From contig CAVYJM010000021.1 in the NCBI GenBank assembly GCA_963768855.1, positions 1 through 64,000 on the forward strand: 64,000 bases of DNA, read 5' to 3'. The stretch is from an uncultured Thermoplasmata archaeon. GTDB taxonomy: Archaea; Thermoplasmatota; Thermoplasmata; RBG-16-68-12. Position numbers and translations under genes: made by a program. The notes beneath the pieces are model-generated. The model was given only the letters and a program-made list of their open reading frames with translations, was not told the DNA's origin and searched no databases. Numbering within the stretch: the stretch's first letter is position 1; each line of letters opens with the position of its first letter. Below are positions 5,287 to 57,343 of this stretch, piece after piece.

Positions 5287-5341
5287 GTTCCTGCGCGGAG
5301 ACCGCCTACGCTGAAATAGGCCGCCGCCGTTGGCTCCTCGC

Positions 5342-9761: not shown

Positions 9762-9832
9762 TGCGCCGGGCGGGAGTCGAACCCGCCTTATGAGCTTGGG
9801 AAGCTCAGGTCCTACCGATAGACTACCGGCGC
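9762..9832 (-). tRNA. tRNA-Gly (CCC)
   Basis: Minus strand GCGCCGG acceptor pairs with CCGGCGC, discriminator A. Anticodon arm TGAGC-TTCCCAA-GCTCA. T-arm GCGGG-TTCGACT-CCCGC. No encoded CCA. TATA-like CTTAAG about 28-33 nt upstream. Confidence 0.95.
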
Positions 9833-33301: not shown

Positions 33302-34540
33302 TCAGGTGCCCTCGTGCCACGACTCCAGGTACTTCTTCTGTGCGGCGGAGAGGGAGTCGATGCGGATGCCCATCGTCTCGAGCTTGAGCCGGGCGACCTT
33401 GTCGTCGAGGGCTTCCGGGACCGCATAAACGCGGGGCTCGAGGTCTCCCGCATGCTTCGCGAGGTGGGCGGCGCTCACGGCCTGGATTGCGAAACTCATG
33501 TCCATGATCTCGACGGGGTGGCCCTGGCCTGCGGCGAGGTTCACGAGGCGTCCCTCCGCGAGCACGTAGATCCGCTTGCCTCCCGCGATCGTGTACTCGT
33601 CCACGAACTCCCGCACGCGGCGCTTCGATTTTGCCGCGCGCTCGAGTTCCTTGAGCGCGATCTCGTTGTTGAAGTGGCCCGCGTTCGCGAGAACGACGCC
33701 GTCGCGGAGGGCGGGGAAGTGCTTCGCCGTCACGATGTCCTTGTCGCCGGTCGCGGAGACGATGAAGTCCGCGACCTTGGCGGCTTGGGCCATCGGCAGG
33801 ACCTCGTACCCGTCCATCGCGGCCTCGATGGCCCGGACCGGGTCGATCTCCGTGACGAGGACGCGAGCGCCCATCCCCTTGGCCCGCATCGCGATCCCAC
33901 GGCCGCACCAGCCGTAGCCCGCGACGACGAAAGCCTTGCCTGCGATCAGCAGGTTCGTCGCGTTCATAATCCCGTCAAACGTGCTCTGGCCCGTCCCGTA
34001 GCGGTTGTCGAACAGGTGCTTCATCTTCGCGTCGTTCACGTCGATGACGGGGAACTTGAGCTCGCCGTCCTTCTCCATGGAGCGCAGGCGGATGACGCCC
34101 GTGGTCGTCTCCTCGTTGCCGCCGCGGACCCCATCGAGGAGTTCGCGGCGCTTCGTGTGCAGCAGGAAGATCAGATCCGCGCCGTCGTCGATGACGAGGT
34201 CGGGTTTCAGGTCGAGGACCTTGTGGAGGCTGTCGTAGTACTCCTCCGTGGTCTGCCACTTCTTTGCGTACACGTCGAGGCCGTGCACCTCCTTGAGCGC
34301 GGCTACGACGCTGTCGTCTGTCGACAAAGGATTACAGGAGGCCAGTCGGACGTCGGCCCCGGCCTCCCTGAGCGTGAGCGCGAGCACCCCCGTCTTCGCC
34401 TCCGTGTGGAGCGCCATCCCGATCCGGAGGCCCTTGACGGCCTTGGACCGCTGGAGTTCCGTGCGGATGGCGGCCAGGACGGGCATATGGTCCCGCGCCC
34501 ATTCGAGGCGGCGTGCCCCGCGCTCCGCGAGCTCGGACAT
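33302..34540 (-). CDS. ahcY: Adenosylhomocysteinase
   Basis: SCNPLST, EETTTG, KHLFDNRYGTGQS, GYGWCGRG, NAGHF, EGRLVNL, GHP.E.MD.SF. Confidence 0.96.
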   Translation of the reverse strand: MSELAERGARRLEWARDHMPVLAAIRTELQRSKAVKGLRIGMALHTEAKTGVLALTLREAGADVRLASCNPLSTDDSVVAALKEVHGLDVYAKKWQTTEEYYDSLHKVLDLKPDLVIDDGADLIFLLHTKRRELLDGVRGGNEETTTGVIRLRSMEKDGELKFPVIDVNDAKMKHLFDNRYGTGQSTFDGIMNATNLLIAGKAFVVAGYGWCGRGIAMRAKGMGARVLVTEIDPVRAIEAAMDGYEVLPMAQAAKVADFIVSATGDKDIVTAKHFPALRDGVVLANAGHFNNEIALKELERAAKSKRRVREFVDEYTIAGGKRIYVLAEGRLVNLAAGQGHPVEIMDMSFAIQAVSAAHLAKHAGDLEPRVYAVPEALDDKVARLKLETMGIRIDSLSAAQKKYLESWHEGT

Positions 34541-38042: not shown

Positions 38043-39692
38043 ATGTCCATGGCCGAAACCGCTCCGGACTCGAGCCGCGGGTTCCCGGTCATCCTGGTGC
38101 CCTACGATCCGGATTGGCCCGCGCAATTCGAGACGGAGAGGGACGCGATCCTCCGCGCGATCGGCGACCGGGTCGTGGCGATCGAGCACGTGGGGAGCAC
38201 CGCAGTCCCCGGTCTCCTGTCCAAGTCCACCCTCGACATCATGGTGGGCGTCTCCCGCCTCGACGGGGCGCAGGCCTGCATCGCGCCGCTGGAAGGCATC
38301 GGCTACGCCTACCGTCCCGACCTGGAGGCTGCGATGCCCGAACGTCGGTACTTCAACAAGGGCCCACGGGGCGCCCGGAGCTACCATCTCCACCTGGTCG
38401 AGTTCGGCCGGGAGTTCTGGATGCGCCACCTGCTCTTCCGCAACTTCCTGCGCGTCCATCCGGACCGCGCGGCGGCGTACGCGACCCTCAAGCAGGAGCT
38501 CGCGGCGAAGCACACCGCGGACCGGAATGCCTACACGGACGCGAAGGGTCCCTTCATCGAGGCCGCGGTCGCCGAGGCCCACACCGAGTTCGCGGGTCCC
38601 GATCCCGCGCGGGTGATCTTCCACGTGGACATGGACGCGTTCTATGTCAGCGTCGAGCGGCGGGAGAATCCGGAGCTCGTGGGCAAATCCGTCGTCGTGG
38701 GCGCGGACCCACGGGGCGGGAAAGGCCGCGGCGTTGTCATGGCGTGCAGCTATGAGGCCCGCCACCTCGGCATCCGGAGTGGCATGCCGATCGGGATGGC
38801 CTGGAAGAAGGTTCCCGAGGCCGTGTACCTGCCGCCGAACTACGACCTCTACGGCTCCGCGTCGGAGAGCGTCCTGGGCATCCTCCGCGGCTTCGCGGAT
38901 GTGCTCGAGCACCTGAGCATCGACGAGGCCTTCCTCGATATCACGTCGAAGGTCCACGGGTTTGACGATGTGGCGGGCTACGCCCAGGGGGTGAAGGCCG
39001 CTGTCCGCGAACGGGAAGGCCTGGCCTGCACGATTGGCGTCGCCCCGAACAAGTCCACCGCCAAGATCGCGTCGGACCTGGCGAAGCCCGACGGCCTCCT
39101 CGTCGTGCGTCCGGAGGAGGTCGCCCTGTTCCTGGCCCCGCTCCCGGTGACTCGGATCAGCGGGGTCGGGACGAAGACGGGGCAGGTCCTGGAGCATGCG
39201 GGGGTTCGCTCCATCGGGCAGCTCGCCGCGTTCCCGGGAGGCGAGCTGAAGAAGCTCCTCGGGAAGAACGCGGTGTGGCTGTGGGGCATCGCGAAGGGGA
39301 TCGAGCGGATGCCGGTCGAGGAGCGCCCCGACCCGAAGAGCATCAGCGTCGAACGCACCTTCGACCGGGATGTGGGCGACTGGCCCAAGGTCCTCGCGAC
39401 CCTGGACAGCATCTCGCACAACGTGTACCTGCGGGCGAAGGGCCAGGGCGCGGCGTTCCAGACCGTCGGGATCAAGGTGCGGTTCGAGGGGTTCCAGACG
39501 TTCCTGCGGGAGCGGAAGCTGCCCAGCCACATCCTCGATGAAGGCGCGCTGGCCCAGGTGACCCGCGATCTCGTGAAGGAGTTCGAGTCCCGCGGCCGAA
39601 AGGTCCGCTTGCTCGGCGTCCGCGTGACAGGCCTCGTACGACCGGGGACCCAACAGCCCACGCTGACCGAGTTCGAGGACGGGCCGACTTGA
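38043..39692 (+). CDS. dinB: Fusion of a GrpB/UPF0157 domain with DNA polymerase IV (DinB/Dpo4)
   Basis: N-terminal part: VPYDPDWP..FE.E, IEHVGSTAVPGL..K..LDI, HLLFRNFLR, Y...K..LA, YT..KG.FI. C-terminal part: FHVDMDAFYVSVE, SYEAR, SIDEAFLD, K.ASD..KPDG, RLLGVRV. Confidence 0.9.
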   Translation: MSMAETAPDSSRGFPVILVPYDPDWPAQFETERDAILRAIGDRVVAIEHVGSTAVPGLLSKSTLDIMVGVSRLDGAQACIAPLEGIGYAYRPDLEAAMPERRYFNKGPRGARSYHLHLVEFGREFWMRHLLFRNFLRVHPDRAAAYATLKQELAAKHTADRNAYTDAKGPFIEAAVAEAHTEFAGPDPARVIFHVDMDAFYVSVERRENPELVGKSVVVGADPRGGKGRGVVMACSYEARHLGIRSGMPIGMAWKKVPEAVYLPPNYDLYGSASESVLGILRGFADVLEHLSIDEAFLDITSKVHGFDDVAGYAQGVKAAVREREGLACTIGVAPNKSTAKIASDLAKPDGLLVVRPEEVALFLAPLPVTRISGVGTKTGQVLEHAGVRSIGQLAAFPGGELKKLLGKNAVWLWGIAKGIERMPVEERPDPKSISVERTFDRDVGDWPKVLATLDSISHNVYLRAKGQGAAFQTVGIKVRFEGFQTFLRERKLPSHILDEGALAQVTRDLVKEFESRGRKVRLLGVRVTGLVRPGTQQPTLTEFEDGPT

Positions 39693-41034: not shown

Positions 41035-41715
41035 CTAACGATTTAGGTGGTCCGAGGCACGCAACACGCGTCCCGTCACGCCGCGGGATTCGTCGGAGGC
41101 CAGATACACGAAGACCTCCGTGACTTGTTTCGGCTCTTTCCCTGCGAAACCTGACATCTTCGTTGCCACCAGCCCGGGATTGACGACGTTCACCCGTTGC
41201 GGCAGCTCGGCCGCCAGCTCGAGCGACAGTCCTTCCAAGGCCCATTTGCTCAACGAGTACGGGAAATACCCCGTCGCGGGACCCTTGGAGAGCCCCGACG
41301 TCACGTTAATGATCGACCCGTCCCGCGGCATGTGCGGAGCCAGATGCTTCACGAGCAGCCACGGCGCGCGGAGGTTCACGGCCATCGTGCGATCGTAGTC
41401 CTCGACGGTCCCGCGGACGGCCGGGCCGAGCCCTTCGTAGATGCCCGCGTTGTTGACGAGCACGTCCACCCGTCCGAATCCCTCCACGCACCCGCGGGCG
41501 GCCGCCTCGATTCCTTCGGACGAGGTCAGGTCGCAAGGGATCGCGAGCGCGTTGCCTCCCTTGCTGCGGATGGCGGCGGCCGTTTCCTCGAGTTCCGCCT
41601 CGGACCGCGCGAGCAGGGCCACCCGGCCCCCTTCCTCGGCGAATCGCTCCGCGACGGCCCGCCCGATCCCGCGGCCAGCACCCGTGACAACCGCGGCCTT
41701 GCCCTCGAGCCTCAC
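41035..41715 (-). CDS. Short-chain dehydrogenase/reductase
   Basis: VTGAGRGIG, LVNNAG, INVTS, YSLSK, NPGLVAT. Confidence 0.9.
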   Translation of the reverse strand: MRLEGKAAVVTGAGRGIGRAVAERFAEEGGRVALLARSEAELEETAAAIRSKGGNALAIPCDLTSSEGIEAAARGCVEGFGRVDVLVNNAGIYEGLGPAVRGTVEDYDRTMAVNLRAPWLLVKHLAPHMPRDGSIINVTSGLSKGPATGYFPYSLSKWALEGLSLELAAELPQRVNVVNPGLVATKMSGFAGKEPKQVTEVFVYLASDESRGVTGRVLRASDHLNR

Positions 41716-42338
41716 AGTTCCGCCCTCCGGATGCGCGGCAGGAGGCGGCCCGTACGGGCCATGTACGCCTCGTACGCCCCGCCGAACGCCTGCGGAGACC
41801 GCAGGAAGTCCTCCTCCAGCCCGGCCCGGTATCGCGCGAGGAAGGCGAGGAGAAGCGACACGAGGAGGAGGGGCGCGCTCAGGAAGACGAGAGCGAGGCC
41901 GAAGGCGAAGGCCGCCACCGCCGTGTACGTCGGATGGCGGACGAACGCGTACGGGCCTTCCTGGACGAGCGTCTGGCCTTCCACAACCTGAATCGAGACG
42001 GTCATGAACCGTCCGAGGGTCCGGATGGCCCAGACCGCGAGACCCCCCGCACCGGCCCAGAGGAGGAGCCCGGCGACCTGGACCACCGTGGAGCCGGGGA
42101 AGTCCCCGAGCGACGGCGCTCCATAGAACCAGCCGGGTGCGAGGGCCACGCCCAAGGTCCACAGCTGGGCCACGGCAATCGCGCCGAGCCACAGGCCCTC
42201 GACGCGCCGGGCGGGATGGCGGGACCGCATGGTCCGATCCCTCGGACCGAACGCGGATCGCCCCACCGCGGCGGCTCCCGCGGCGGGAGCGAGGAAGAGC
42301 ACGGCGCCCACGATCTGGATGGTCCCGGGGTCCAGCAT
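41712..42338 (-). CDS. ICMT/PEMT-family integral membrane methyltransferase
   Basis: LVQEGPYAFVRHPTY, EE..L, Y.AY...T.RLLP. Confidence 0.85.
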   Translation of the reverse strand: MLDPGTIQIVGAVLFLAPAAGAAAVGRSAFGPRDRTMRSRHPARRVEGLWLGAIAVAQLWTLGVALAPGWFYGAPSLGDFPGSTVVQVAGLLLWAGAGGLAVWAIRTLGRFMTVSIQVVEGQTLVQEGPYAFVRHPTYTAVAAFAFGLALVFLSAPLLLVSLLLAFLARYRAGLEEDFLRSPQAFGGAYEAYMARTGRLLPRIRRAEL

Positions 42339-42377: not shown

Positions 42378-43580
42378 TCAGTTCAGCGGCGTCGCCTCGT
42401 TGACCTCGTGCACGACCTTGAGCCCCATGCGTCCCATGAGCCGCAGGCTTTCCGCGGGATCGAGACATTCCGCGGAGATGACGCCGGTCTGCGTGATCTG
42501 CCCGCGGACGAGCTGGGTCGCGAAGACCGCCGCGCCCGTGCCGACGAGGTACCCCGTCGCGGTCGCGTTGTGCCTCCGCGCGGCGTCCTCGTGCCGCATC
42601 CCAGTGTAGAGCCGGTGCCTCACCCGCCGCCCGTCCTTCAGGCCGTCGACCTCGACGACGATCATCGCGGTCCCCGTCACCTTCCCGACCAGGTCGGCAG
42701 GCCGGCGGACGAGGCTCATCAGCATCTTCCGCGGGGAGACGCTCTTCCCCTCCACGGTCACCGGCTCCTCGCTGAGCAAACCGAGGCGGTGGATCGTGTG
42801 GAGGATCTCGTACGTGGCGTCGTCGATCGCGAGCTTCAGGTCGACGTAGCGGAGCCCCTTGCCGATGAACCTGCCAAGGGTCTCCGGCTCCTCGTGGTCC
42901 ATCAGATACACGGGCTGCGGGCCGACCGGCTCGGGGAACGGGTAGATCTCCTTCCCGCTCCACGGCGGCGGCCGGACGAGGCCGCCGTCCTCGAAGTAGA
43001 GTCCCGGGCTGAACACCTCGACGAGGAACGTCTCCGGGGACCACACGACGGGCAGGGGCGTGTCCGGCGAGGAGGCGGTGTCCCCGTCGCGGATTCGGAT
43101 GGCGTTCACGGAATCGAGCGCGTCCGCCCCGTGCCGCGCGAGGACGTTGCCGAGTCCGGGATCCTCGCCGCCGCCCAGGAGCGCCGTGAGGCCCGCTTTG
43201 CGGAACTTCGCGTCGTACGGCAGCTGCTTGGACGGTTCCGACGAGAGGTCCATGTAGTGCGACCCCGCGTCGAGGCAGGCTTCCATCAGCGGGAGGTCCA
43301 GGCTGGCGTGGGCCGCGTTGATCGCGAGGTCGGCGTCCTTCAGGGCTTTGGCTAGGACGCCGACGTCAAGCCCCTTCACGGGCGCCGCCCGCGCCTTCAG
43401 GCTCCGGAGCATGGCAGCGAGAGCCCGGGCCCGCGCCGGCACGAGGTCGGTCAGGACGAGGTCGTCGATCTCCTTCAGGCGCACCAGGTGGCGGGCGGCC
43501 ACGGTCCCCATGGCTCCCGCTCCGAACAGGACGATGCGAATGCTGTCACTCCTTCGACGACGGGACCGCGGCTCCCCCAC
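42378..43580 (-). CDS. Saccharopine dehydrogenase-like oxidoreductase (carboxyaminopropylagmatine/lysine dehydrogenase superfamily)
   Basis: FGAGAMG, INAA, HYMDL, GGGEDPGLGN, WSPETF, HEEPETL. Exact start is uncertain. Confidence 0.8.
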   Translation of the reverse strand: MGEPRSRRRRSDSIRIVLFGAGAMGTVAARHLVRLKEIDDLVLTDLVPARARALAAMLRSLKARAAPVKGLDVGVLAKALKDADLAINAAHASLDLPLMEACLDAGSHYMDLSSEPSKQLPYDAKFRKAGLTALLGGGEDPGLGNVLARHGADALDSVNAIRIRDGDTASSPDTPLPVVWSPETFLVEVFSPGLYFEDGGLVRPPPWSGKEIYPFPEPVGPQPVYLMDHEEPETLGRFIGKGLRYVDLKLAIDDATYEILHTIHRLGLLSEEPVTVEGKSVSPRKMLMSLVRRPADLVGKVTGTAMIVVEVDGLKDGRRVRHRLYTGMRHEDAARRHNATATGYLVGTGAAVFATQLVRGQITQTGVISAECLDPAESLRLMGRMGLKVVHEVNEATPLN

Positions 43581-47307: not shown

Positions 47308-48894
47308 TCAGCGGCTCCCGCGTCGCCGGTCCCGGAGAACCATCCGGGCCGCATTGCGCCCGGGCGCCCCGGTGATCCCGCCGCCCGGGTGGGCGCCTGA
47401 TCCGCAGAGATAGAGGCCCGCGATTGGCGTGCGATACTGGCTCCAGCCGGGCGCGGGCCGCAGGACGAGTTGCTGGTTCAACGTCATCTCTCCGTGGTAG
47501 ATGTGGCCGTCGGTGAGGCCGAACCGGTTCTCGAGGTCCAGCGGAGTCAGGACTTCCCGCGCGAGCACGAGCCCACGGAATCCAGGGAGGTGTTCGTCCA
47601 GGAGATCGGTCACCGCGTCGCCCAGTTCCTCGCGACCCGCTTCCCAGTCCCCTTTCTTCCGGTGGTACGGCTCATACTGGACCGCGACTGACATCACATG
47701 CTTGCCCGCAGGGGCGAGATCCGGGTCCATGAGGGAGGGGATCGTGATGTCCAGGAACGGGTCCTCCGAGGGCGCGCCGTATTTCGCGTCGTCGTACGCG
47801 TGCTCGAGGTACTCCAGGGAAGGTGCGATCCGGAGATGCGGCGCGACCACGACGTCGTCGCCGGGAACAGACGGAGCGCCGTCCAGGGCGAAGTTCACCT
47901 TCGCGACGACGCCTTCCGTCTGGAAGTGGCGGATGTAGTCGAGGAAGTCCCGGGGTAGCTCCGCGGGGTCGACGAGCCGGAGGAACGTGCGCTTCGGGTC
48001 GGCGTTCGAGAGGACGATCGGTGCGAGGAGGATCTCTCCGGAGACGAGCTGGACGCCGCTCGCACGCCCGTCCTTCGTGAGGACCTGCAGGACCTCCGCG
48101 TCGGTCCGGATGACGGCTCCGGATTCCTGGGCGGCGGACGCCAGGAGCCGGGTGAGGTTCCCCATCCCGCCGCGGACGAACCCCCAGCCTGTGCCGTGCA
48201 CCGCGGGGGCGTAGTGGTGGAGGAGACCGAACGCGGTCTCCGGGGAATACGGGCCGCGGAACGTCCCGGCCAGCGCGTCGACCGCGAGGCTGGCCTTGAG
48301 CCGCTCGCCCTCGAACCACTCGTTGAGCACGGCCCGCAGGCTCATGGGCACCATGCGGATCGCCTGGTTCATCACGTCGACCCCGGATCGGCGCAGCTTG
48401 AGCCCGCGGCGGAGGAGCGTCAGCTGGTCCACCCATCTCCAATCCGCCACCTCTGGGGGAGGCGCCACGAGGAGCGGGTCGATGATGCTCGCGAGGGTCG
48501 TGAGGAGGGAGTGGAACGCGGGGAAGGCGGCGGCGTCGTGCTGCGAGGACGCGGCGATCTCCTGCGCCGAGCGCGCGGGGTCCCGCCAGATCCTCAGTGG
48601 CTTCCTTTCCATGCCGAGGACGACGACCTCTGGGTCGATTGGGAGGATCTGCAGACCGCGCTGGGCCAGTCCGAGCTCCTGGACGATTTCAGGTCGCAGG
48701 TTTCCGCAGAGGCTCGCCCCCGGGAGGCCTCGGAACCCCGGATAGAACTCCTCCGTGGTCGCCGCCCCGCCGACGATGGGCCGGCGTTCCAGGACGAGGA
48801 CGCGGTGCCCTGCACGAGCCAGGTACGCAGCGGCGACCAGCCCGTTGTGCCCGGCCCCGATGACGATCACATCGTACCCGGAGGGCACGGTCAC
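47308..48894 (-). CDS. PYROXD2/phytoene dehydrogenase-like FAD oxidoreductase (paralog 1)
   Basis: GAGHNGL, ERR..VGGAA.TEE..PGF, DPKRTFL, YLCGSGAHPGGG.TGAPG.NAA. GTGA overlap with paralog 2. Confidence 0.88.
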   Translation of the reverse strand: MTVPSGYDVIVIGAGHNGLVAAAYLARAGHRVLVLERRPIVGGAATTEEFYPGFRGLPGASLCGNLRPEIVQELGLAQRGLQILPIDPEVVVLGMERKPLRIWRDPARSAQEIAASSQHDAAAFPAFHSLLTTLASIIDPLLVAPPPEVADWRWVDQLTLLRRGLKLRRSGVDVMNQAIRMVPMSLRAVLNEWFEGERLKASLAVDALAGTFRGPYSPETAFGLLHHYAPAVHGTGWGFVRGGMGNLTRLLASAAQESGAVIRTDAEVLQVLTKDGRASGVQLVSGEILLAPIVLSNADPKRTFLRLVDPAELPRDFLDYIRHFQTEGVVAKVNFALDGAPSVPGDDVVVAPHLRIAPSLEYLEHAYDDAKYGAPSEDPFLDITIPSLMDPDLAPAGKHVMSVAVQYEPYHRKKGDWEAGREELGDAVTDLLDEHLPGFRGLVLAREVLTPLDLENRFGLTDGHIYHGEMTLNQQLVLRPAPGWSQYRTPIAGLYLCGSGAHPGGGITGAPGRNAARMVLRDRRRGSR

Positions 48895-50483
48895 CTCCTC
48901 CACACGGACCAGTCGTTGAGCATCTCCCGCGCGGCGTTGTAGCCCGGGGCGCCCATCACGCCGCCCCCGGGGTGGGCTCCGGAGCCGCAGAGGTACAGCC
49001 CCCGGACCGGGGTGCGGTACTGGGCCCAGCCGGCCACGGGCCGGAGGAAGAACAGCTGATTCGGCGTGAGCTCCCCGTGAAAGATGTTGCCCTCGGTGAG
49101 CCCGATTGTGCGCTCGAGGTCCAGCGGCGTGAGCACCTGCCGTCCCACAATCGCCTTCGGGAGGTTCGGGGCGAACTGGGCGAGCGTCTCGACGACCGTG
49201 TCGCCGAGTTCCTCCCGCTTGTCGTCCCACGTACCGTTCTTCAGATGGTAGGGGGCGTACTGGACGAAGATGGACATGATGTGGTTACCCGGCGGTGCCA
49301 TGCCCGGGTCGATCGCGGAGGGCACCATGACGTCCATGTAGGGGTGCTGGGAGAAGTTCCCGTACTTCGCGTCGTCGTACGCCCGCTCGATGTACTCGAC
49401 GCTCGGGCTGATTGAGACGGCCCCGTGGAGGTGCGCCCCTTCCCCCGGCAGGCACGTGAAATTCGGCGGCTCCTTGAGCGCGAGGTTCACCTTCGCACTG
49501 GACCCTTCGATGTTGTACGCCTCGATGCCGCGGACGAAATCCCCCGGGAGGAGGTTGCGGTCGAGCATCTGGAGGAACGTGCGCTTGGGGTCGACGCCCG
49601 ATGCGATGATGTGCGAGGCGATCCGTTCGCCGCTCGCCAGTTCGACGCCGGTCACCCGGCCATCGGCGACGAGGATCTGGCGCACCTCGGCGTTCACGCG
49701 GATGTCCGCGCCGAATCCGCGTGCCGCGGAGGCGATCGACTCGCTGACCATGCCCATGCCGCCCTTCACGAAGCCCCAGGCGCGGAACGCGCCGTCGACT
49801 TCTCCCATGTAGTGGTGGATCAGGACGTACGCGGTCCCGGGAGACCGCGGCCCCAGAAAGGTCCCGATGATCCCGCTCGCGCACATCGTCCCCTTGAGCG
49901 CGTCCGTCTCGAACCATTCATCCAGGTAGTCCGCGCTCGACATCGTCATGAGCCGCGCGAAGGTGTACAGGGTCTCCTGGTCCGCGCTCCGGAACTGGCC
50001 GCGGAGCTCGAGCATCCTCCGCAGGTTCGCGGGGTTCATCGAGCCGAGGTCGGGCGGCGTCATGCCGATCTGCGGCTTGACAAATTTCGCGATCTTGACC
50101 ATGAGCTGCCCGAACTTCGGGTACGCCTCCGCGTCACGCTTCGAGAATTTGGAGATCTCCTTGCGGTTCTCCTCCGGATCCGCTCCGCGGAACAGGTAGC
50201 GGCCGTCCTCGAGCGGCGTGAGCGTGGATTCGACCGGGATGATCTGGTAGCCATGGGCTGGAAGGTTCAGGTCCCGGATGATCTCCGGCCGGAGGAGGCT
50301 GCAGACGTAGGAGCAGACCGTGAACTTGAACCCGGGGACGATCTCCTCCGTGACGGCGGCGCCCCCGACCAAGTGGCGGCGCTCGAGCACGAGGACCTTC
50401 TTCCCCGCGCGTCCCAGGTACGCCGCGGTGACGAGTCCGTTGTGGCCTCCGCCGATGACGATCGCATCGTACGCCTGGGCCAT
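48891..50483 (-). CDS. PYROXD2/phytoene dehydrogenase-like FAD oxidoreductase (paralog 2)
   Basis: GGGHNGL, TAYVLIHHYMG, GGMG, DPKRTFL, YIERAYDDAKYG, GNIFHG, CGSGAHPGGGVMGAPG. Confidence 0.9.
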   Translation of the reverse strand: MAQAYDAIVIGGGHNGLVTAAYLGRAGKKVLVLERRHLVGGAAVTEEIVPGFKFTVCSYVCSLLRPEIIRDLNLPAHGYQIIPVESTLTPLEDGRYLFRGADPEENRKEISKFSKRDAEAYPKFGQLMVKIAKFVKPQIGMTPPDLGSMNPANLRRMLELRGQFRSADQETLYTFARLMTMSSADYLDEWFETDALKGTMCASGIIGTFLGPRSPGTAYVLIHHYMGEVDGAFRAWGFVKGGMGMVSESIASAARGFGADIRVNAEVRQILVADGRVTGVELASGERIASHIIASGVDPKRTFLQMLDRNLLPGDFVRGIEAYNIEGSSAKVNLALKEPPNFTCLPGEGAHLHGAVSISPSVEYIERAYDDAKYGNFSQHPYMDVMVPSAIDPGMAPPGNHIMSIFVQYAPYHLKNGTWDDKREELGDTVVETLAQFAPNLPKAIVGRQVLTPLDLERTIGLTEGNIFHGELTPNQLFFLRPVAGWAQYRTPVRGLYLCGSGAHPGGGVMGAPGYNAAREMLNDWSVWRR

Positions 50484-50538
50484 CCTCGCTCCGCCTCCCG
50501 CCGCCGCGACCTCGAGCGATTCGGAATGAACGAGTTCC

Positions 50539-50591
50539 ATTTAACAATTCGTCTCAAGGGGCTCCGAATTTCGCCGCTCCTAAAGCTTTAA
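50539..50591. promoter_or_regulatory. Divergent promoter region between paralog 2 and the GcvT-like gene
   Basis: AT-rich boxes TTTAA (~50540) and palindromic TAAAGCTTTA (50581-50590) in a GC-rich background between head-to-head genes. Confidence 0.45.
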
Positions 50592-50635
50592 CCGAACTCG
50601 AGGCTTGCCCATCCGGCGTCGTCGGGAGGAGAGGC

Positions 50636-51823
50636 ATGCCGCGCGGGACCCCGTTCCACTCGAGGACCTCCGCCCTGTGCGAGAGCTACAGCTGGCGGAA
50701 CTGGTCTGGATACGTGTGCGCGAGCTCGTACCAGCTCGTCCCGGAGATGGAGTACCATGCGATCCGGGGGGCCACGGGACTCCTCGACGTCTCGCCGCTT
50801 TTCAAGTACCACGTCCGCGGGACGGATGCGTTCCGGCTCTTGAACAAGGTCGTGACGCGGGATCTGGCGAAGTGCCGTCCCCATCAGGTCATGTACACGC
50901 CGTGGTGCGACGACCGGGGCAAGACGATCGACGACGGGACGGTGTGGAACCTCGGGGATGGCACGTGGCGCCTGACGTCGGCCGAGTCGAACCTCGGGTG
51001 GCTCGAGGAGAACGCGTTCGGGATGAAGGTGGAGATCTCGGACGTGTCGGAGGATATCGCCACGGCGGCCCTCCAGGGACCGACCTCGAAGGCCATCCTG
51101 GAAGACGCCTGCGACGGTGCGGTCGAGGGTCTCCGGTACTACCGCTTCACCGAGACCAAGCTCGATGGCATCCCCGTGACCGTGTCCCGCACCGGGTACA
51201 CCGGGGATCTCGGCTACGAGATCTGGACGGAGCGGGAGAACGCCGAGCGGCTGTGGGATGCCCTGATGGCGCACGGGAAGGGGCATGGGATCACGCCCGC
51301 AGGGCTCCTCGCGCTCGACATGGCGCGCATCGAGGCGGGGCTCATCCTCGCCGAGGTGGACTACATGCCCGCGCGGAAGGCGGTGATCGACTCGCAGGCC
51401 TATTCCCCGATGGAGCTCGGCTTGGACTGGACGGTCGATTGGAGGAAGGAGTCGTTCACGGGCCGAGCCGCGCTCCGGGCCGAGCAGGCTCGCGGGGTGC
51501 CGAGGCGGATCGTCGGCCTGGAGCTCGACTGGAGTGTTGCGGAGGCGTTCTACCAGAAACTCGGGTTGCCTCCCGAGCCACCGCGCGTCGCGTGGCGATC
51601 GAAGATCCCGGTGTACGGGAGCCTCCGCCAGATCGGCCACGCCACGAGCGGCGTGTGGTCCCCTCTCCTGAAGCGGTATCTGGCCCTGGCCACCGTCGAC
51701 GCCGCGTACGCCTCGCCGGGAACGGTCGTCGACATGGAGGTCACGATCGAGGACGAGCGCAAGCGCGTTCCCGCCGCGGTCGTGCCGCGCCCCTTCTTCG
51801 ACCCACCGCGCAAGAAGGCATGA
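50636..51823 (+). CDS. Aminomethyltransferase/GcvT-family folate-binding protein
   Basis: GLLDVSP, YT.WCDD.GKTIDDG, ALQGP.S, SRTGYTGDLGYEI, ARIEAG, TS..WSP.LK. Confidence 0.88.
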   Translation: MPRGTPFHSRTSALCESYSWRNWSGYVCASSYQLVPEMEYHAIRGATGLLDVSPLFKYHVRGTDAFRLLNKVVTRDLAKCRPHQVMYTPWCDDRGKTIDDGTVWNLGDGTWRLTSAESNLGWLEENAFGMKVEISDVSEDIATAALQGPTSKAILEDACDGAVEGLRYYRFTETKLDGIPVTVSRTGYTGDLGYEIWTERENAERLWDALMAHGKGHGITPAGLLALDMARIEAGLILAEVDYMPARKAVIDSQAYSPMELGLDWTVDWRKESFTGRAALRAEQARGVPRRIVGLELDWSVAEAFYQKLGLPPEPPRVAWRSKIPVYGSLRQIGHATSGVWSPLLKRYLALATVDAAYASPGTVVDMEVTIEDERKRVPAAVVPRPFFDPPRKKA

Positions 51824-51907
51824 TGGGTCTCGATCTCGGCAATGCATCCCCGTGAGCAGGTCGAGAGCAACGGATTTATCGGATGGACGGTTCTCGGAGC
51901 CGGGAGC

Positions 51908-53470
51908 ATGGTCTCGTACGATGCGATCGTGGTCGGGGCAGGTCACAACGGCCTGGTCGCGGGAGCCTATCTCGCGAAGGCCGGTCTGAGGACGCTCATC
52001 CTCGAGCGTCGCGGAATCGTCGGCGGCGCCTGCGTCACGGAGGAGGTCCTGCCCGGTTTCCGCGTCTCGAGCCTGTCCTACACCTGCGGCCTCTTCCGCC
52101 CGGAGATCAAGGAGGAGCTGCAGCTCGCGAAGTTCGGGCTCGAGGAGCACTCGCACGATCCCGGCCTGTTCCTCCCGTTCCCGGACCGCCGGTACATCAT
52201 GTGGCGTCCCGACCCCGCGTGGAACCTCCGCGAAGTCGCGAAGTTCTCCGAGGCGGACGCGACGGCGCTCCCGAGGTACGAAGCGTTCTGGGAGCAGTTC
52301 GGGGAGCTCGTCGAGCCGACGATGCTCGCACCCCCGGTCAGCCTCGCGGACCTCGCCCAGCTCGTCACGACGCCGGAGGCGGAGGACTTCATCCGCAAGA
52401 CCCTCCTCATGTCCGTTCAGGACGTCCTGGACGACTTCTTCGAGTCCGACGAGGTCAAGGTCTCCCTGGGCACGAGCGCGGTCTCCGGCACGCTCGCAGG
52501 CCCGCGCACCCCTGGCACAGCGTTCGTCCTCGGCCACCACAGCATCGGGACGATCAACGGCGAGAAAGGCGTCTGGGGGTGGGCGAAGGGAGGGATGGGC
52601 GGCATCACCCAGGCGACTGCAAGCGCGGCCCGCCATTTCGGCGCGGAGATCCGAACCCGGGCGGGTGTGGCCCGCGTGCGGATCGAAGACGGGAGGTCCA
52701 CGGGCGTGGAACTCGAGGACGGCACGACGATCGAGTCGAAGGTCGTTCTGAGCAACCTCGATCCGAAGCGCACGTTCCTCGGGATCGTCGGGAAGGAACA
52801 CCTTCCCGCGGACTTCGTGCACGCGATCGACCGTTACCGCATGGAGCCTTCCTCGTTCAAGCTCAACCTCGCGCTCAAGGACCTGCCCGACTTCTCCGCG
52901 ATCCCCGGGACGAACCTACAGCTCCATCACAAGGGGATCATCGACATCGCCCCGGACCTCGACTACCTGGAGCGAGCCTACGAGGACGCGATCCACGGCC
53001 GCTGGTCCAGGGAGCCCTACATCGAGTTCGTCCTCCAGTCGACGGTCGACCCGACCGTGGCACCGAAGGGGATGCACACCCTGACGGCGTCGTGCAAGTT
53101 CGCGCCGTACGAACTCGAGGACGGGAGCTGGGACACGGAGGGCGAGAAGTTCGCGGAGGCGATCCTCGACTCCATCGAGGCCTACGCCCCGAACGTCCGC
53201 AAGATTATCCTGGGCCGGAACTGGATTACGCCGCTGGACATGGAGCGGGAGTACGGGCTGACCCGGGGCGACGTCTTTCACGGCGCGATCTTCCCGTACC
53301 AGATGTTCTCCTTCCGGCCTGTGCCGGGGTGGGCGCGTTACCGCACTCCGGTCGAGAGGCTCTACCTCTGCGGCGCGGGGGCCCATCCCGGTGGAGGTGT
53401 GCTCGGGGCGCCGGGCCACAACGCCGCCATGGCGGTCCTCGAGGACTGGCCGAAGTTCTCGTCGCCCTGA
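51908..53470 (+). CDS. PYROXD2/phytoene dehydrogenase-like FAD oxidoreductase (paralog 3)
   Basis: GAGHNGL, VGGACVTEE..PGF, GTAFVL.HH, GGMG, DPKRTFL, YLERAY.DA, CGAGAHPGGG. Confidence 0.9.
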   Translation: MVSYDAIVVGAGHNGLVAGAYLAKAGLRTLILERRGIVGGACVTEEVLPGFRVSSLSYTCGLFRPEIKEELQLAKFGLEEHSHDPGLFLPFPDRRYIMWRPDPAWNLREVAKFSEADATALPRYEAFWEQFGELVEPTMLAPPVSLADLAQLVTTPEAEDFIRKTLLMSVQDVLDDFFESDEVKVSLGTSAVSGTLAGPRTPGTAFVLGHHSIGTINGEKGVWGWAKGGMGGITQATASAARHFGAEIRTRAGVARVRIEDGRSTGVELEDGTTIESKVVLSNLDPKRTFLGIVGKEHLPADFVHAIDRYRMEPSSFKLNLALKDLPDFSAIPGTNLQLHHKGIIDIAPDLDYLERAYEDAIHGRWSREPYIEFVLQSTVDPTVAPKGMHTLTASCKFAPYELEDGSWDTEGEKFAEAILDSIEAYAPNVRKIILGRNWITPLDMEREYGLTRGDVFHGAIFPYQMFSFRPVPGWARYRTPVERLYLCGAGAHPGGGVLGAPGHNAAMAVLEDWPKFSSP

Positions 53471-53474
53471 CGAA

Positions 53475-54365
53475 TCAGCGGTCGCGGACCTGCGCGTCGT
53501 ACGCATTCGCGAAACCAGCGTCCCCAGCCTCGAGGAAGTTCTTGAGGCAGACGAGGAGGTCCGACCAGCCGCCGCGGTGGTACAGGATTTCCGCCTGCTC
53601 TGCCGCACCGTATCCTGCGCTCGTCACGTAGATCGCGGTCCCGCTCGACTTGGGTTCAAGGGTGAATGTGACGTGGAGGTCGCCCTGCTCCCGGGGCCAC
53701 CGCAGCACGAGGCGGTGCGGGGGCTCGAACTCCAGGATTCGGTCCGGACCGTGGTCCCAGCCCATCGAGAACGCTCCGCCCGCACGGGAATCGACTCGGG
53801 CCTTGCCGAGGGGAACGCCCCCGGTCGACCAATGGTCCACCTGCGGGGCGTCCGTGAGGGCCGCGAACAGGTTCTCCTGAGGCACCTCAATGAGGTTGGA
53901 GAGGCGTAGCTCGCGCGAGGCGACGGGCGCATGGTCCGGACGGACGCTGTCGCTCCGGCCCTCCCCGATGGACTTGAGGTTTCCGAGGCACATCCTCCAT
54001 GCGTCTTGGATCGTGCCGCACGTGCTGTCCTTCAACGGGACGCCCAGATGCCGGACCGTGAGCAGCGTGGCCTCCCCGCCCTGATCCTCAAGATCGTACG
54101 ACACGCGGGTGGCGTTCCCACGGATCGGCCACGTGAAGGCGAAACGCTTCAGGGTCTCCCCCTCGTCGATCGTGGTCTCCCAGCCGCGGCCCTCGGGCAG
54201 GACGAGGCACGTCTCCCCGCCGAACTGGAACTTGCCGCCCACCTTGGGTTCGATGCGGCACCAGCCGCAGAACCAGCGGGCCAGATGCTCGATGCGGAGC
54301 AGCTTCTCGAAGACGGTGGCCCGCGGGGCGTGGACCCGCAGGAGGAATTCGTAATCAGTCGTCAT
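53475..54365 (-). CDS. Tandem SRPBCC/AHSA1-like domain protein
   Basis: Two START-like repeats: AP...VF..L......WF...GG.F and VP...LF.ALTD......W...GG.F...L...W; W...L..LK at the end of each. Confidence 0.75.
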   Translation of the reverse strand: MTTDYEFLLRVHAPRATVFEKLLRIEHLARWFCGWCRIEPKVGGKFQFGGETCLVLPEGRGWETTIDEGETLKRFAFTWPIRGNATRVSYDLEDQGGEATLLTVRHLGVPLKDSTCGTIQDAWRMCLGNLKSIGEGRSDSVRPDHAPVASRELRLSNLIEVPQENLFAALTDAPQVDHWSTGGVPLGKARVDSRAGGAFSMGWDHGPDRILEFEPPHRLVLRWPREQGDLHVTFTLEPKSSGTAIYVTSAGYGAAEQAEILYHRGGWSDLLVCLKNFLEAGDAGFANAYDAQVRDR

Positions 54366-54501
54366 CCCGACGCCCCGGCGCAAGGACTCGCGCCGTTTCA
54401 ACTTGCCTCCTGTATTTACCGCCCGACCCGAACCTATTTGCCCGTTCCCCGCGTCCCACACATGCTGCTTCGGATCGGCGTGTGCGCAGGAGCGGAAGAC
54501 G

Positions 54502-55668
54502 ATGGGATACCGGTACGCGGTCATCGGCTCGGGCCGCCAGGGGACGGCCGCGGCCTACGACTTCGCGAAGTTCGGCGATGCGGACGACATCGTGATGGGC
54601 GACATGGTCCTCGGGCAGGCGAGGCGCGCGGCCGCGCGGGTGAACAAGCTCGCCGGACGCTCCGTGGCCCGCTCCGCCCAGGCCGACGTCACGAAGCCCG
54701 CGACGATCCTGAAGGTGATCAAAGAGGCGGACGTCCTGCTGAGCGGCGTCCCGTACTTCTTCAACCTGGGCCTCGCGAAACTCGCCTTGAAGGCGAGGGT
54801 CTCCATGGTCGACTTCGGCGGCAACACGGACCTCGTGCGGAAGCAGCTCGCCCTCGACGCGAGCGCGCGCAAGGCGGGGGTCGGGTTCGTCCCCGATTGC
54901 GGCATGGGTCCGGGGCTGAACATCACGATGGGCGTCTACGCGATGGAGCTCCTCGACGTTCCGGAACACATCTACATCTACGACGGGGGTCTGCCGCAGC
55001 ATCCCCGGCCACCCTGGAACTACGAGCTCACGTTCAACGTGGAGGGCCTGACGAACGAGTATTTCGGCGACGCCACGTTCATCCGGGACGGGCGGGTCGC
55101 CCGGGTCCCGCTCTTCTCCGAGTTCGAGCTCGTGGACTTCCCGCCCCTCGGGACGCTCGAGGCGGTCGTCACGCCGGGAGGCCTGTCCACCGCCCCGTGG
55201 TCCTTCCAGGGCAAGTTGAAGACGTTCCAAAACAAGACCCTCCGATATCCGGGCCACTGGTCCCAGATGCAGGCATTCCAGGACCTCGGCCTCTTCGAGC
55301 TCGACCCGATCGAGGTCGACGGCCGCAAGGTCATCCCGCGCCACGTCTTCCACGCGCTGTTCGAACCCAAGGTCACCCCCGAGGAGATCCGGGACGTCTG
55401 CGTCGAGCGCGTGCGTGCCCTCGGCATGAAGGATCAGCACACCGCGGAGGCGGTCGTCGAACTCGTCGACTACTACGACGAGGCCACGGGCTTCACGTCG
55501 ATGGAGCGGCTCACCGGCTGGCATGCGGCGATCACGGCGGAGATGATCGCCCGCGGCGTCATCCCGCCCGGGGCGCACTCCGTCGAGCTCGGGATCCCCG
55601 CGAAGGCGTTCGTCCAGGAGGCGCGGAAGCGCGGCCTGAAAATCACGGAGCGCGTGAACGCGGTGTGA
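54502..55668 (+). CDS. Lysine 6-dehydrogenase/saccharopine dehydrogenase-like oxidoreductase
   Basis: GSGRQG, VDFGG, PDCGMGPGL, GGLPQHPRPPWNYELTFN.EGL.NEY, T.GGLST, KTLRYPGH, TSMERLTG. Confidence 0.8.
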   Translation: MGYRYAVIGSGRQGTAAAYDFAKFGDADDIVMGDMVLGQARRAAARVNKLAGRSVARSAQADVTKPATILKVIKEADVLLSGVPYFFNLGLAKLALKARVSMVDFGGNTDLVRKQLALDASARKAGVGFVPDCGMGPGLNITMGVYAMELLDVPEHIYIYDGGLPQHPRPPWNYELTFNVEGLTNEYFGDATFIRDGRVARVPLFSEFELVDFPPLGTLEAVVTPGGLSTAPWSFQGKLKTFQNKTLRYPGHWSQMQAFQDLGLFELDPIEVDGRKVIPRHVFHALFEPKVTPEEIRDVCVERVRALGMKDQHTAEAVVELVDYYDEATGFTSMERLTGWHAAITAEMIARGVIPPGAHSVELGIPAKAFVQEARKRGLKITERVNAV

Positions 55669-55725: not shown

Positions 55726-56148
55726 ATGAAGGCCACGAAGGGTCGCAAGGTGGCGGTGCACTACCGCGGCACCCTCGAAGACGGCGAGGAGTTCGACTCC
55801 AGCGAAGGCCGCGAGCCCCTCGAATTCGTCGTGGGGGACGGCGACCTCATCCCCGGGTTCGAGAAGGCGGTCATCGGGATGGAGCCCGGCCAGAGCAAGA
55901 CGGTCACCCTGGACGTGGAGGACGCGTACGGTCCCTACGAGGACCAGCTCGTGGTCGAGGGGCCGCGGAATTCATTCCCCGACGGGGAGCTCAAGGTGGG
56001 CCAGAGCTACACGGTCCATCTTCACGATGGGCAGGAGGCCGTCGGCCGCGTGCTGCGCATCGGGAAGGACGCGGTGGCCCTCGACTTCAACCACCCGCTC
56101 GCGGGGAAGCGGCTCACGTTCCACGTGCGCGTCGTTTCCGTGGCGTAG
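55726..56148 (+). CDS. FKBP-type peptidyl-prolyl isomerase (SlyD-like)
   Basis: V.VHYRG.L..GEEFDSS, PL.F..G...LIPGFE, DFNHPLAGK.L.F. Confidence 0.93.
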   Translation: MKATKGRKVAVHYRGTLEDGEEFDSSEGREPLEFVVGDGDLIPGFEKAVIGMEPGQSKTVTLDVEDAYGPYEDQLVVEGPRNSFPDGELKVGQSYTVHLHDGQEAVGRVLRIGKDAVALDFNHPLAGKRLTFHVRVVSVA

Positions 56149-57343
56149 CCCGCTTCTTCCGCCCGGGCGCCTTCGTGTACAGGTCCGACCGGCCCGTCAT
56201 CCGTTCCATGTATGCCTTGTCCAGGTCGTACACGAGCGGTTCCTGATTGCTGAACCGTCCTCGGGCCCAGGCGCGGGACCGGACGCCGAGCTGGGTGCGT
56301 TCGCACACGGCCCAGTCCTGGCGGTTGATCTCGTCCCACATGTCGACGGCATCGCTCGGGTCGAAGTCGGGCCTCGCCATGGTCTCCGGTTCGAAGTACC
56401 ACTCGCACTCGATCCGCGAGTGGGTCGGGCTCAGGGGCCAGTCGCGGTGAATCATCAGGTAGTCCGGGTGGACGCTGAAGAACATGTTCGGGAAGACGAC
56501 CCAGTAGTAGATCCGCTTCCGGTCGTCGTCGGTCATCCCCTTCAGAGGCGGCCGTTTCGTGTAGCCGGACACGGTCATCGAGGTGTAGTCGCCCGCGAAG
56601 GTCTGGAAGCCGCCGTTGATGTAGCCCGGCGTCGTCCCCCGCGCCATCCAGGCGTCGTTGTCCCCGGTGAAGTACGGCGTCACGCGGTTCAGCCCGGGGT
56701 GGATTGGGGCGCAGTGGTAGCACTCCGAGTAGTTCTCCGCGAGGATCTTCCAGTTCGCGTTCACCTCGTACACGTGCTTCGCGCCGAGGCGCAGGTCTGC
56801 GATGTCCCAGCGCTCCGTGCGCGTCAGGAGCGGACCGATCTGGTCCTTGAGGGGTTGCGCCTCCGGGTCCATGTTGGCCCAGATGAAACTGCCCCAGGTC
56901 TCCGTCTTGACGGGATAGAGCCCGAAGTCCTCCTTGTCGAAGTCCTCGAGCCCGTCCGTATGGGGAGCGCCGACGAGCTTGCCTTCCGTCGAGTACGTCC
57001 ACGCGTGGTACGGGCAGACGATCGAGCGGAGCTTCTCGCCGCGTTCCTCCGTGACGATGCGCGTGCCGCGATGGCGGCAGACGTTGTAGAATCCGCGGAC
57101 GCGGCTGTCGTTGCCCCGCACGAAAAGCAGGCTCTCCGTCCCGATGTCCCGCGTGAAGAAGTCGCCGGGGTTCGGGATCTGGGTGACGTGCCCGACGTTG
57201 AGCCAATTACGGAAGAAGAGCTTCTCCAACTCCTGCTGGAACACCCCCTCGTCGAAGTAGACAGCGCCGGGAGGGGTCCTCGCGGAGAGATGTTCATCTC
57301 CGGGTCTGGCGCGCGGGTTGTCACTGAACCGAACTCGCTCCAT
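56114..57343 (-). CDS. Rieske non-heme iron oxygenase alpha subunit (choline monooxygenase/GbcA-like group)
   Basis: Rieske CRHRG...CPYHAW. Iron centre NWK...ENYSECYHC...H. EINRQDW.VCE..Q.G. Confidence 0.92.
   Translation of the reverse strand: MERVRFSDNPRARPGDEHLSARTPPGAVYFDEGVFQQELEKLFFRNWLNVGHVTQIPNPGDFFTRDIGTESLLFVRGNDSRVRGFYNVCRHRGTRIVTEERGEKLRSIVCPYHAWTYSTEGKLVGAPHTDGLEDFDKEDFGLYPVKTETWGSFIWANMDPEAQPLKDQIGPLLTRTERWDIADLRLGAKHVYEVNANWKILAENYSECYHCAPIHPGLNRVTPYFTGDNDAWMARGTTPGYINGGFQTFAGDYTSMTVSGYTKRPPLKGMTDDDRKRIYYWVVFPNMFFSVHPDYLMIHRDWPLSPTHSRIECEWYFEPETMARPDFDPSDAVDMWDEINRQDWAVCERTQLGVRSRAWARGRFSNQEPLVYDLDKAYMERMTGRSDLYTKAPGRKKRATPRKRRARGT

Follow-up and report, generated by a model that had tools for sequence, protein, structure and literature searches.

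We analysed the first 64,000 nucleotides (the window) of contig CAVYJM010000021.1, contig C21 of a metagenome-assembled genome (GCA_963768855.1) of an uncultured Thermoplasmata archaeon, and in it a cluster of four genes at positions 47308–53470, where the gene of a GcvT-like protein lies between genes for flavoproteins of the CrtI/PYROXD2 type. We consider it rather likely that this locus codes for an oxidative N-demethylase of methylated amines that is split and folate-coupled. To our knowledge, the flavoprotein demethylases described so far as folate-coupled are all DAO-type enzymes that carry a GcvT domain of their own. A split analogue of such dehydrogenases on the CrtI fold had been proposed from the letters of this DNA (the original prediction), and genomic context now supports it: a linkage conserved in two domains of life, a GcvT-like protein of the Tdm type, a second module on contig C6 of the same genome, a Rieske oxygenase gene nearby, and a common clade with PYROXD2. 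New here are the exact linkage counts, the distinction between a constant FlavoB and variable partners, the finding that a Rieske gene co-varies with a single clade of second flavoproteins, the folate contacts of trimethylamine N-oxide (TMAO) demethylase (TDM) as mapped onto the protein of the window, the position of eukaryotic PYROXD2 within the B/C clade, the genus-restricted archaeal distribution and the cultured alphaproteobacterial carriers. The genome (2.87 Mb, 67% G+C) is 93.6% complete, and its closest relatives are Thermoplasmata archaea from soils and aquifers.

The cluster consists of two divergent gene pairs. FlavoA (47308–48894, minus strand) encodes a flavin adenine dinucleotide (FAD) protein of 528 residues and is translationally coupled to FlavoB (48891–50540, minus strand; 549 residues): the tetranucleotide GTGA is common to the FlavoB stop and the GTG start of FlavoA, and is preceded by GGAGG. 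FlavoB probably starts at Met20 (position 50483), giving 530 residues, as indicated by its homologs and by the disorder of residues 1–20 in its AlphaFold2 model. Between FlavoB and the GcvT-like gene (50636–51823, plus strand; 395 residues) lies an AT-rich region read directly in the sequence (50541–50635), 95 bp long, or 152 bp if FlavoB starts at Met20, which presumably holds divergent promoters. The third paralog, FlavoC (51842–53470, plus strand; 542 residues), is co-directional with the GcvT-like gene, whose stop lies 18 nt before the FlavoC start; FlavoC probably begins at Met23 (51908), giving 520 residues. This bears out, in gene calls and sequence, the predicted arrangement of a GTGA-coupled flavoprotein pair diverging from a GcvT-family gene that is followed by a third paralog, and, with the probable starts, the predicted length of about 520–530 residues for all three flavoproteins. 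The four motifs quoted as shared (GHNGL, DPKRTFL, Y.E.AY.DA..G and CG.GAHPGGG) are each present in all three translations, whose pairwise identity is 42–47%.

To measure how firmly these genes belong together we took 80 loci from different GTDB species, each with a FlavoB ortholog 61–92% identical to that of the window, and mapped the window proteins on each with tblastn; 72 loci (25 archaeal, 47 bacterial) could be evaluated for a GcvT-like neighbour and 66 (22 archaeal, 44 bacterial) for a second flavoprotein. A GcvT-like gene stands directly beside the FlavoB ortholog in all 72. The archaeal pairs (25 of 25) are divergent with a median gap of 233 bp, and the bacterial pairs (47 of 47) are co-directional in 39 loci and divergent in 8, with a median gap of 9 bp. 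A second flavoprotein gene follows downstream in 63 of 66 loci, comprising all 22 archaeal (median gap 7.5 bp) and 41 of the 44 bacterial ones. Two loci show no GcvT-like gene, and there the sequence is cut less than 150 bp upstream of FlavoB. Beyond the module, the flanks are otherwise unrelated between loci. The original prediction had named just this comparison as a check on the flavoprotein/GcvT unit, and a lack of conserved linkage as grounds for its rejection; the linkage we find holds in every evaluable locus across archaea and bacteria. The bacterial carriers belong to the Gemmatimonadota, Acidobacteriota, Binatia, Eisenbacteria, Latescibacterota, Limnocylindrales and Syntrophobacteraceae. 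Cultured Alphaproteobacteria keep the content of the module in shuffled order: Fuscovulum ytuae (plasmid NZ_CP124537.1) and Rhizobium sp. SL42 (NZ_CP063398.1) carry a class III aminotransferase, two flavoproteins followed by an aminomethyltransferase-family (GcvT) protein, one or two Rieske alpha subunits, a PotD-type ABC transporter and a TetR regulator. Ensifer adhaerens and Shinella are further cultured carriers.

Visualizing the relatedness of 164 flavoproteins as a FastTree phylogeny, we observed that the FlavoB orthologs form a monophyletic clade (clade B) of 81 members with a bacterial and an archaeal half. Its sister, clade C, comprises 16 proteins, every one of them archaeal in our sample. 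FlavoA falls in a third clade (clade A) of 27 members, and the second flavoproteins of bacteria occupy at least four further clades. The FlavoB type is the constant partner of the GcvT-like protein, and the second flavoprotein is variable.

The GcvT-like protein scores above the Pfam gathering thresholds for GCV_T (PF01571, 203 bits) and GCV_T_C (PF08669, 54 bits), and misses the cut-offs for true T-proteins (168.7 versus 235.85 bits for TIGR00528; 230 versus 300 bits for PRK00389). The gcvH and gcvP genes of this genome lie on other contigs, and a higher-scoring GCV_T gene on contig C10 is the better T-protein candidate. The best NCBIfam match is instead the C-terminal half of Tdm (NF053776, profile positions 386–760), at 285 bits against a cut-off of 1100; the best match in the PDB is residues 407–783 of Paracoccus TDM (9q5a, E = 6e-53); and among longer proteins the nearest are those of DUF1989+GCV_T (Tdm-type) architecture, 35–38% identical over the full length of the GcvT-like protein. 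Mapped on the 9q5a alignment, the tetrahydrofolate (THF) contacts of TDM, R480, F582, F672 and K782, correspond to R, Y, W and R. The DDG motif, which we take to hold the catalytic aspartate of T-proteins, is also kept. In TDM the GcvT-like domain binds THF (Kd ~149 nM) and takes up formaldehyde through a tunnel, yielding methylene-THF (PMC13619132). Judged by these similarities, the GcvT-like protein of the window would come closest to a stand-alone folate-binding type akin to the TMAO demethylase domain. A complex prediction for FlavoB and the GcvT-like protein, run without controls on an alignment of 32 rows for each, gave a score of 0.00, which counts neither for nor against binding.

The folate carrier itself had been argued from a folP gene in the window. 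A folP-type gene is indeed present (approximately 5330–6208; Pterin_bind, 275 bits), but the support that it lends is weak, since it lies about 41 kb from the cluster; the MTHFR and pterin-binding genes found elsewhere in the genome are better support.

All three flavoproteins match Pfam Amino_oxidase/NAD_binding_8, with scores for Amino_oxidase (PF01593) of 71 bits for FlavoA and 52 and 39 bits for the other two, above the gathering cut-off of 19.8. Each has a single dinucleotide-binding stretch of the Rossmann type, located N-terminally. All flavoprotein clades keep the GxGxxG motif, E53 and the HPGG motif near the C-terminus, and the three paralogs of the window probably all bind FAD. FlavoA and the other second types differ from the B, C and PYROXD2 proteins at, for example, Y78, H242, H243, W255 and F487, and the substrate pockets of the paralogs may differ. 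Among solved structures, CrtI 4dgk (E = 2e-18) is the one noteworthy relative by sequence. In a fold search with the AlphaFold2 model of FlavoB (mean predicted local distance difference test score, pLDDT, 79.5), the carotenoid desaturases 4rep (template modelling score, TM, 0.71/0.79) and 4dgk come first, followed by NicA2, 6-hydroxynicotine oxidase and monoamine oxidase (MAO); the TM scores against NicA2 and MAO are 0.54–0.59. Because the model lies near both carotenoid desaturases and flavin amine oxidases, the fold search does not tell desaturation from amine oxidation.

PYROXD2-annotated proteins of a flatworm (Macrostomum), an oomycete (Lagenidium) and two plants (Hevea and Drosera), a comparison set that does not include the human sequence, are 41–43% identical to FlavoB over 93–99% of its length, and are less similar to FlavoA and FlavoC. 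Rooting the tree with a distant homolog places them together in one clade, the sister group of clade C and nested within B+C (FastTree support 0.97–0.99), and the automatic Atlas cluster names agree with this assignment. By full-length similarity and phylogenetic grouping, we assign the flavoproteins of the module to the PYROXD2 family. Human PYROXD2 is an orphan mitochondrial flavoprotein and a mitochondrial disease gene, and we know of no dedicated GcvT partner for it. Lower expression of the human gene accompanies higher signals of urinary trimethylamine and plasma dimethylamine (PMC3169529), and N2-acetyl-N6,N6-dimethyllysine shows a strong association with variants of PYROXD2 (PMC13352909); human variants also track the levels of trimethylamine and dimethylamine. 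In the PYROXD2 literature that we searched, we found no substrate or activity named.

Outside the window, the genome places further genes of these families among genes of methyl transfer. It contains seven flavoprotein paralogs (two B, two A and three C). The second GcvT/B/A module, on contig C6 (784000–812000), shares its island with three MttB genes of the non-pyrrolysine type and with genes for a corrinoid protein, a class III aminotransferase, a pterin-binding methyltransferase, and MTHFR together with its C-terminal partner (DUF5981). Beta-oxidation-type genes come next; they encode a thiolase, a CoA-transferase of family III and a 3-hydroxyacyl-CoA dehydrogenase fused to an enoyl-CoA hydratase. 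One C-type copy sits between the corrinoid protein and an MttB gene, and another, on contig C11 (15000–34000), diverges from a BHMT-like homocysteine S-methyltransferase gene. Just past this C11 copy lies a gene of the phage integrase family, and the copy may be on or beside a mobile element. Altogether the genome has 11–12 MttB-family genes without in-frame stops. The MttB relatives that accompany the module score 371–432 bits, under the curated equivalog cut-off of 525. ETF genes (electron-transfer flavoprotein) are present and unlinked to the modules. A profile search of the 93.6%-complete genome found no FAO_M domain, the domain of DMGDH and SARDH, and the genome therefore appears to be without an enzyme of that type. 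Enzymes of the MttB and GbcA/Stc2 types each take off just one methyl group. With one methyl removed by MttB and no FAO_M protein, tertiary-amine products would thus be left without a canonical demethylase, and the flavoprotein/GcvT modules become the obvious candidates for demethylating these leftover tertiary and secondary amines.

A Rieske non-haem-iron oxygenase alpha subunit of the CntA/Stc2/GbcA type (Pfam Rieske and Ring_hydroxyl_A) is encoded in the window at 56114–57343 on the minus strand. Its four best PDB matches are, in order, the carnitine monooxygenase CntA (6y8j, E = 7e-52, near full length), the uncharacterised 3n0q, the stachydrine demethylase Stc2 (3vca) and 4qup, whose entry title reads 'monoxygenase; demethylase'; its best NCBIfam match is the glycine betaine monooxygenase GbcA, at 213 bits, short of the cut-off of 670. 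Stc2 and GbcA act on quaternary amines. In bacteria a Rieske gene is a frequent fourth member of the operon (16 bacterial loci), and it comes after the second flavoprotein in 16 of 17 loci where that protein belongs to one particular clade, versus 0 of 38 for the other clades; the loci are kin, and this co-variation may reflect few evolutionary events. From its similarities, the Rieske oxygenase of the window is a candidate for the enzyme of a first step.

From these observations, we hypothesize the following scheme. A PYROXD2/CrtI-like flavoprotein would attack a methylamine, tertiary or secondary, at its N-methyl C–N bond and oxidise this to an iminium, passing electrons to O2, ETF or quinone, and the stand-alone GcvT-fold protein, perhaps in physical association with it, would bind THF and capture the one-carbon unit, as formaldehyde or iminium, to give 5,10-methylene-THF. 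FlavoB and GcvT would be the constant core. The variable parts, namely the second flavoprotein (FlavoA here), the third (FlavoC) and the CntA/Stc2/GbcA-like Rieske oxygenase, would serve as substrate adapters or act on successive methylation states, a quaternary amine being demethylated by the Rieske or MttB enzyme and the tertiary and then the secondary amine by the flavoproteins. As the original prediction suggested, the paralogs may form a hetero-oligomer or each serve one methylation state. Candidate substrates would be products of betaine demethylation: dimethylglycine, sarcosine, N,N-dimethyl- and N-methyl-4-aminobutyrate, N6-dimethyl- and N6-monomethyl-lysine and N-methylproline. The class III aminotransferase found both in the C6 module and in the alphaproteobacterial operons suggests an omega-amino product such as 4-aminobutyrate. 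For the module of the window, methylated lysines are a speculative candidate, because two saccharopine-dehydrogenase-like genes flank it (in archaeal relatives only) and because of the human dimethyllysine association. More tentatively, and with somewhat more doubt than belief, we entertain a wider proposal: that the B/C/PYROXD2 clade, human PYROXD2 included, is an unrecognised class of flavin N-methyl-amine demethylases, provided in prokaryotes with a dedicated stand-alone GcvT-fold subunit, and that the module of the window, with its two saccharopine-dehydrogenase-like genes and quaternary-amine Rieske oxygenase alongside, could be a pathway that yields lysine from its trimethyl, dimethyl and monomethyl forms. 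Such a pathway would fit the orphan activity called 'epsilon-alkyllysinase / N6-methyl-lysine oxidase', and also the human association of PYROXD2 with N6,N6-dimethyllysine derivatives.

Among known systems, the proposed chemistry is most like that of DMGDH, SARDH, DMGO (1pj5), 4-methylaminobutyrate oxidase and SoxABDG, which would share with the module the oxidation of an N-methyl group by a flavin and the capture of the product on THF by a GcvT-fold module; the GcvT-like protein matches the GcvT domains of such enzymes (1pj5, E = 3e-28; 4p9s; 2gag). Their flavin domain is of the DAO type, carries an FAO_M linker and shares a chain with GcvT, or lies within SoxA, whereas here two to three CrtI/PYROXD2-like paralogs accompany a GcvT encoded by its own gene, so that the module falls outside the DMGDH/SARDH type. 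The GcvT-like protein finds its closest relative in Tdm (DUF1989 plus GcvT-like; 9q5a), with about 35–40% identity over the full length and four conserved folate contacts. Tdm makes its formaldehyde in the Zn-containing DUF1989 core of the same chain (PMC13619132), while the protein of the window has no DUF1989 and has a flavoprotein partner. PYROXD2 belongs to the family of FlavoB, and the human gene has a genetic tie to methylated-amine levels. CrtI, CrtD and CrtO (4dgk, 4rep) supply the nearest solved folds and the best NCBIfam names, but the genome analysed here shows no carotenoid pathway, and the partners of the flavoproteins here are one-carbon and methylamine genes. Finally, CntA, Stc2, GbcA and non-pyrrolysine members of the MttB family (MtgB, MtpB, MtcB, MtyB) take the first methyl group, or trimethylamine, off betaines; relatives of these are found with the module in the window, on contig C6 and in bacterial operons, as accessory rather than core members, and miss the equivalog cut-offs.

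Several observations weigh against an N-demethylase. No consistent transporter or regulator indicates the substrate in the bacterial loci: among 35 same-strand flanking genes we found no recurrent family, the commonest being Rce1-like (4), IclR (3), M24 (2) and FAA hydrolase (2). The closest solved folds are carotenoid desaturases, ahead of the amine oxidases. Distant homologs (at most 43% identical) in Sphingobium and Paracoccus aminophilus stand alone without GcvT; the linkage therefore belongs to particular clades and not to the whole family, and the proposed function may not extend to all of it, human PYROXD2 included. First-look counts of MttB candidates, which are unconfirmed matches, are high in about 7 of 21 genomes of the genus, all 21 of which have flavoproteins, and the link to MttB is therefore facultative. 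Sound Rosetta-stone support is also missing: the apparent fusions, five flavoprotein–flavoprotein (~1040–1060 residues) and four flavoprotein–GcvT (~800–1130 residues), are all singleton clusters, and in the three examined closely (P0127, P0146 and P0149) the domain junction is absent or unalignable. They are probably indel errors of long-read assemblies that merge overlapping genes, and we did not count them as evidence. We found no paper on the prokaryotic module or its gene combination and no biochemistry for any member, and the paper on the glycine-betaine enzyme MtgB makes no mention of these flavoproteins.

Of the other explanations, the one that deserves most attention makes the flavoproteins amine or C–N oxidases acting on a bond other than N-methyl, in a polyamine, an opine-like secondary amine or an amino acid, with a separate role for the GcvT-like protein such as formaldehyde scavenging or an unrelated aminomethyl transfer. 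Polyamine and monoamine oxidases share the fold; PotD-type 'polyamine' ABC transporters and class III aminotransferases occur in the alphaproteobacterial operons; and the archaeal locus is flanked by GNAT genes and by saccharopine-dehydrogenase-like genes, one of which has carboxynorspermidine synthase as its best match (125 bits). Those flanking genes, however, are syntenic within the archaeal lineage only, whereas the single invariant partner in 72 of 72 loci is a one-carbon acceptor of the formaldehyde-capturing Tdm type, and the Rieske and MttB enzymes found alongside have N-methyl or quaternary groups as their targets. We regard this explanation as unlikely.

Two further explanations seem to us far less credible still. 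That the flavoproteins supply the reductase or electron-transfer parts that the Rieske oxygenase lacks would account for the orphan state of the alpha subunit in the window, which has no reductase or ferredoxin gene nearby, and for its place as fourth operon gene in bacteria. Yet the 38 loci that have room downstream and no Rieske gene keep GcvT and both flavoproteins, the invariant GcvT partner is left unexplained, and the flavoproteins contain, by Pfam, no iron-sulfur domain and, as far as their one dinucleotide-binding stretch indicates, no second NAD(P)H domain; this makes the idea highly improbable. We give slightly less credence again to their being carotenoid or isoprenoid desaturases, ketolases or isomerases (CrtI/CrtO/CRTISO-like) with a GcvT neighbour by coincidence. 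For all three flavoproteins, the best NCBIfam match is the CrtO ketolase (NF045689), at 292–318 bits, and the nearest solved structures are of this kind; but those scores are far under the cut-off of 1000, and those for crtI_fam (TIGR02734; 115–131 bits, FlavoA scoring 131) are far under 238. Nor did a profile search of the 93.6%-complete genome match the phytoene/squalene synthase family (PF00494), a search which in a control matched 8 of 14 named genomes; the lack of such a gene removes the carotenoid explanation, and adjacency to GcvT in two domains together with methyl-transfer neighbours also speaks against it. A carotenoid desaturase with crtB elsewhere was the other outcome that the original prediction had said would overturn it, and crtB was not found in the genome. 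The window had further been described as free of phytoene synthase, cyclase, gcvH and gcvP. For the synthase this holds throughout the genome, and gcvH and gcvP are on other contigs as described. The carotenoid-enzyme identity was accordingly rejected, and the split N-demethylase remains our preferred explanation.

Some other genes of the window are conserved in archaeal relatives. A tandem AHSA1/SRPBCC-domain protein (53475–54524, minus strand; Pfam AHSA1 in two stretches) is syntenic with the module there (L021–L043) and may be a small-molecule-binding accessory. Its gene is always beside FlavoC, and in several relatives (L029, L030, L036–L038) it lies directly 3' of the Rieske gene, co-directional and with a gap of about 130 bp. 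The two saccharopine-dehydrogenase-like proteins are encoded at 54403–55668 on the plus strand (SDH2; Pfam Sacchrp_dh_NADP and Sacchrp_dh_C) and at 42378–43580 on the minus strand (SDH1); both are syntenic, by tblastn, in archaeal relatives only, and neither has a curated NCBIfam assignment. Upstream of the cluster are genes for an S-adenosylhomocysteine hydrolase (33302–34540, minus strand), syntenic in one relative (L015), and for a PEMT/ICMT-type membrane methyltransferase (41712–42338, minus strand). The reading frame at 38043–39692 (plus strand; 549 residues) combines GrpB (residues 15–176) with a complete Y-family DNA polymerase (IMS, HhH, IMS_C). In relative L015 the polymerase gene encodes 362 residues without GrpB, and the frame in the window represents a genuine fusion or else the read-through of two genes. 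Positions 1–2000 have a G+C content of 0.52, versus about 0.67 for the rest of the window, which could reflect foreign DNA, a non-coding stretch or an artefact of the contig end. The sole Rfam match in the window at the gathering threshold is one tRNA gene (9762–9832, minus strand).

Among archaea the flavoproteins are concentrated in one genus. All 20 sampled genomes of the genus to which the window belongs carry them, in two to seven copies each, compared with 1 of 5 genomes in the sister genus and 1 of 35 in the rest of the order, and an even sample of the phylum yielded none in 150 genomes. Because the bacterial range is wide, the simplest reading is acquisition from bacteria followed by expansion in this archaeal genus.

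If the split N-demethylase is real, it would be a second solution to folate-coupled demethylation, divided between separate proteins and built on the CrtI/PYROXD2 fold. The module is spread over several bacterial phyla and multiplied in one archaeal genus, and it would add a step to the turnover of betaines and methylated amines by soil microbes, filling the gap that follows a first demethylation of the MttB or Rieske type in organisms without DMGDH or SARDH. Human PYROXD2 would at the same time gain a concrete hypothesis that can be assayed, and cultured bacteria are available in which to test it.

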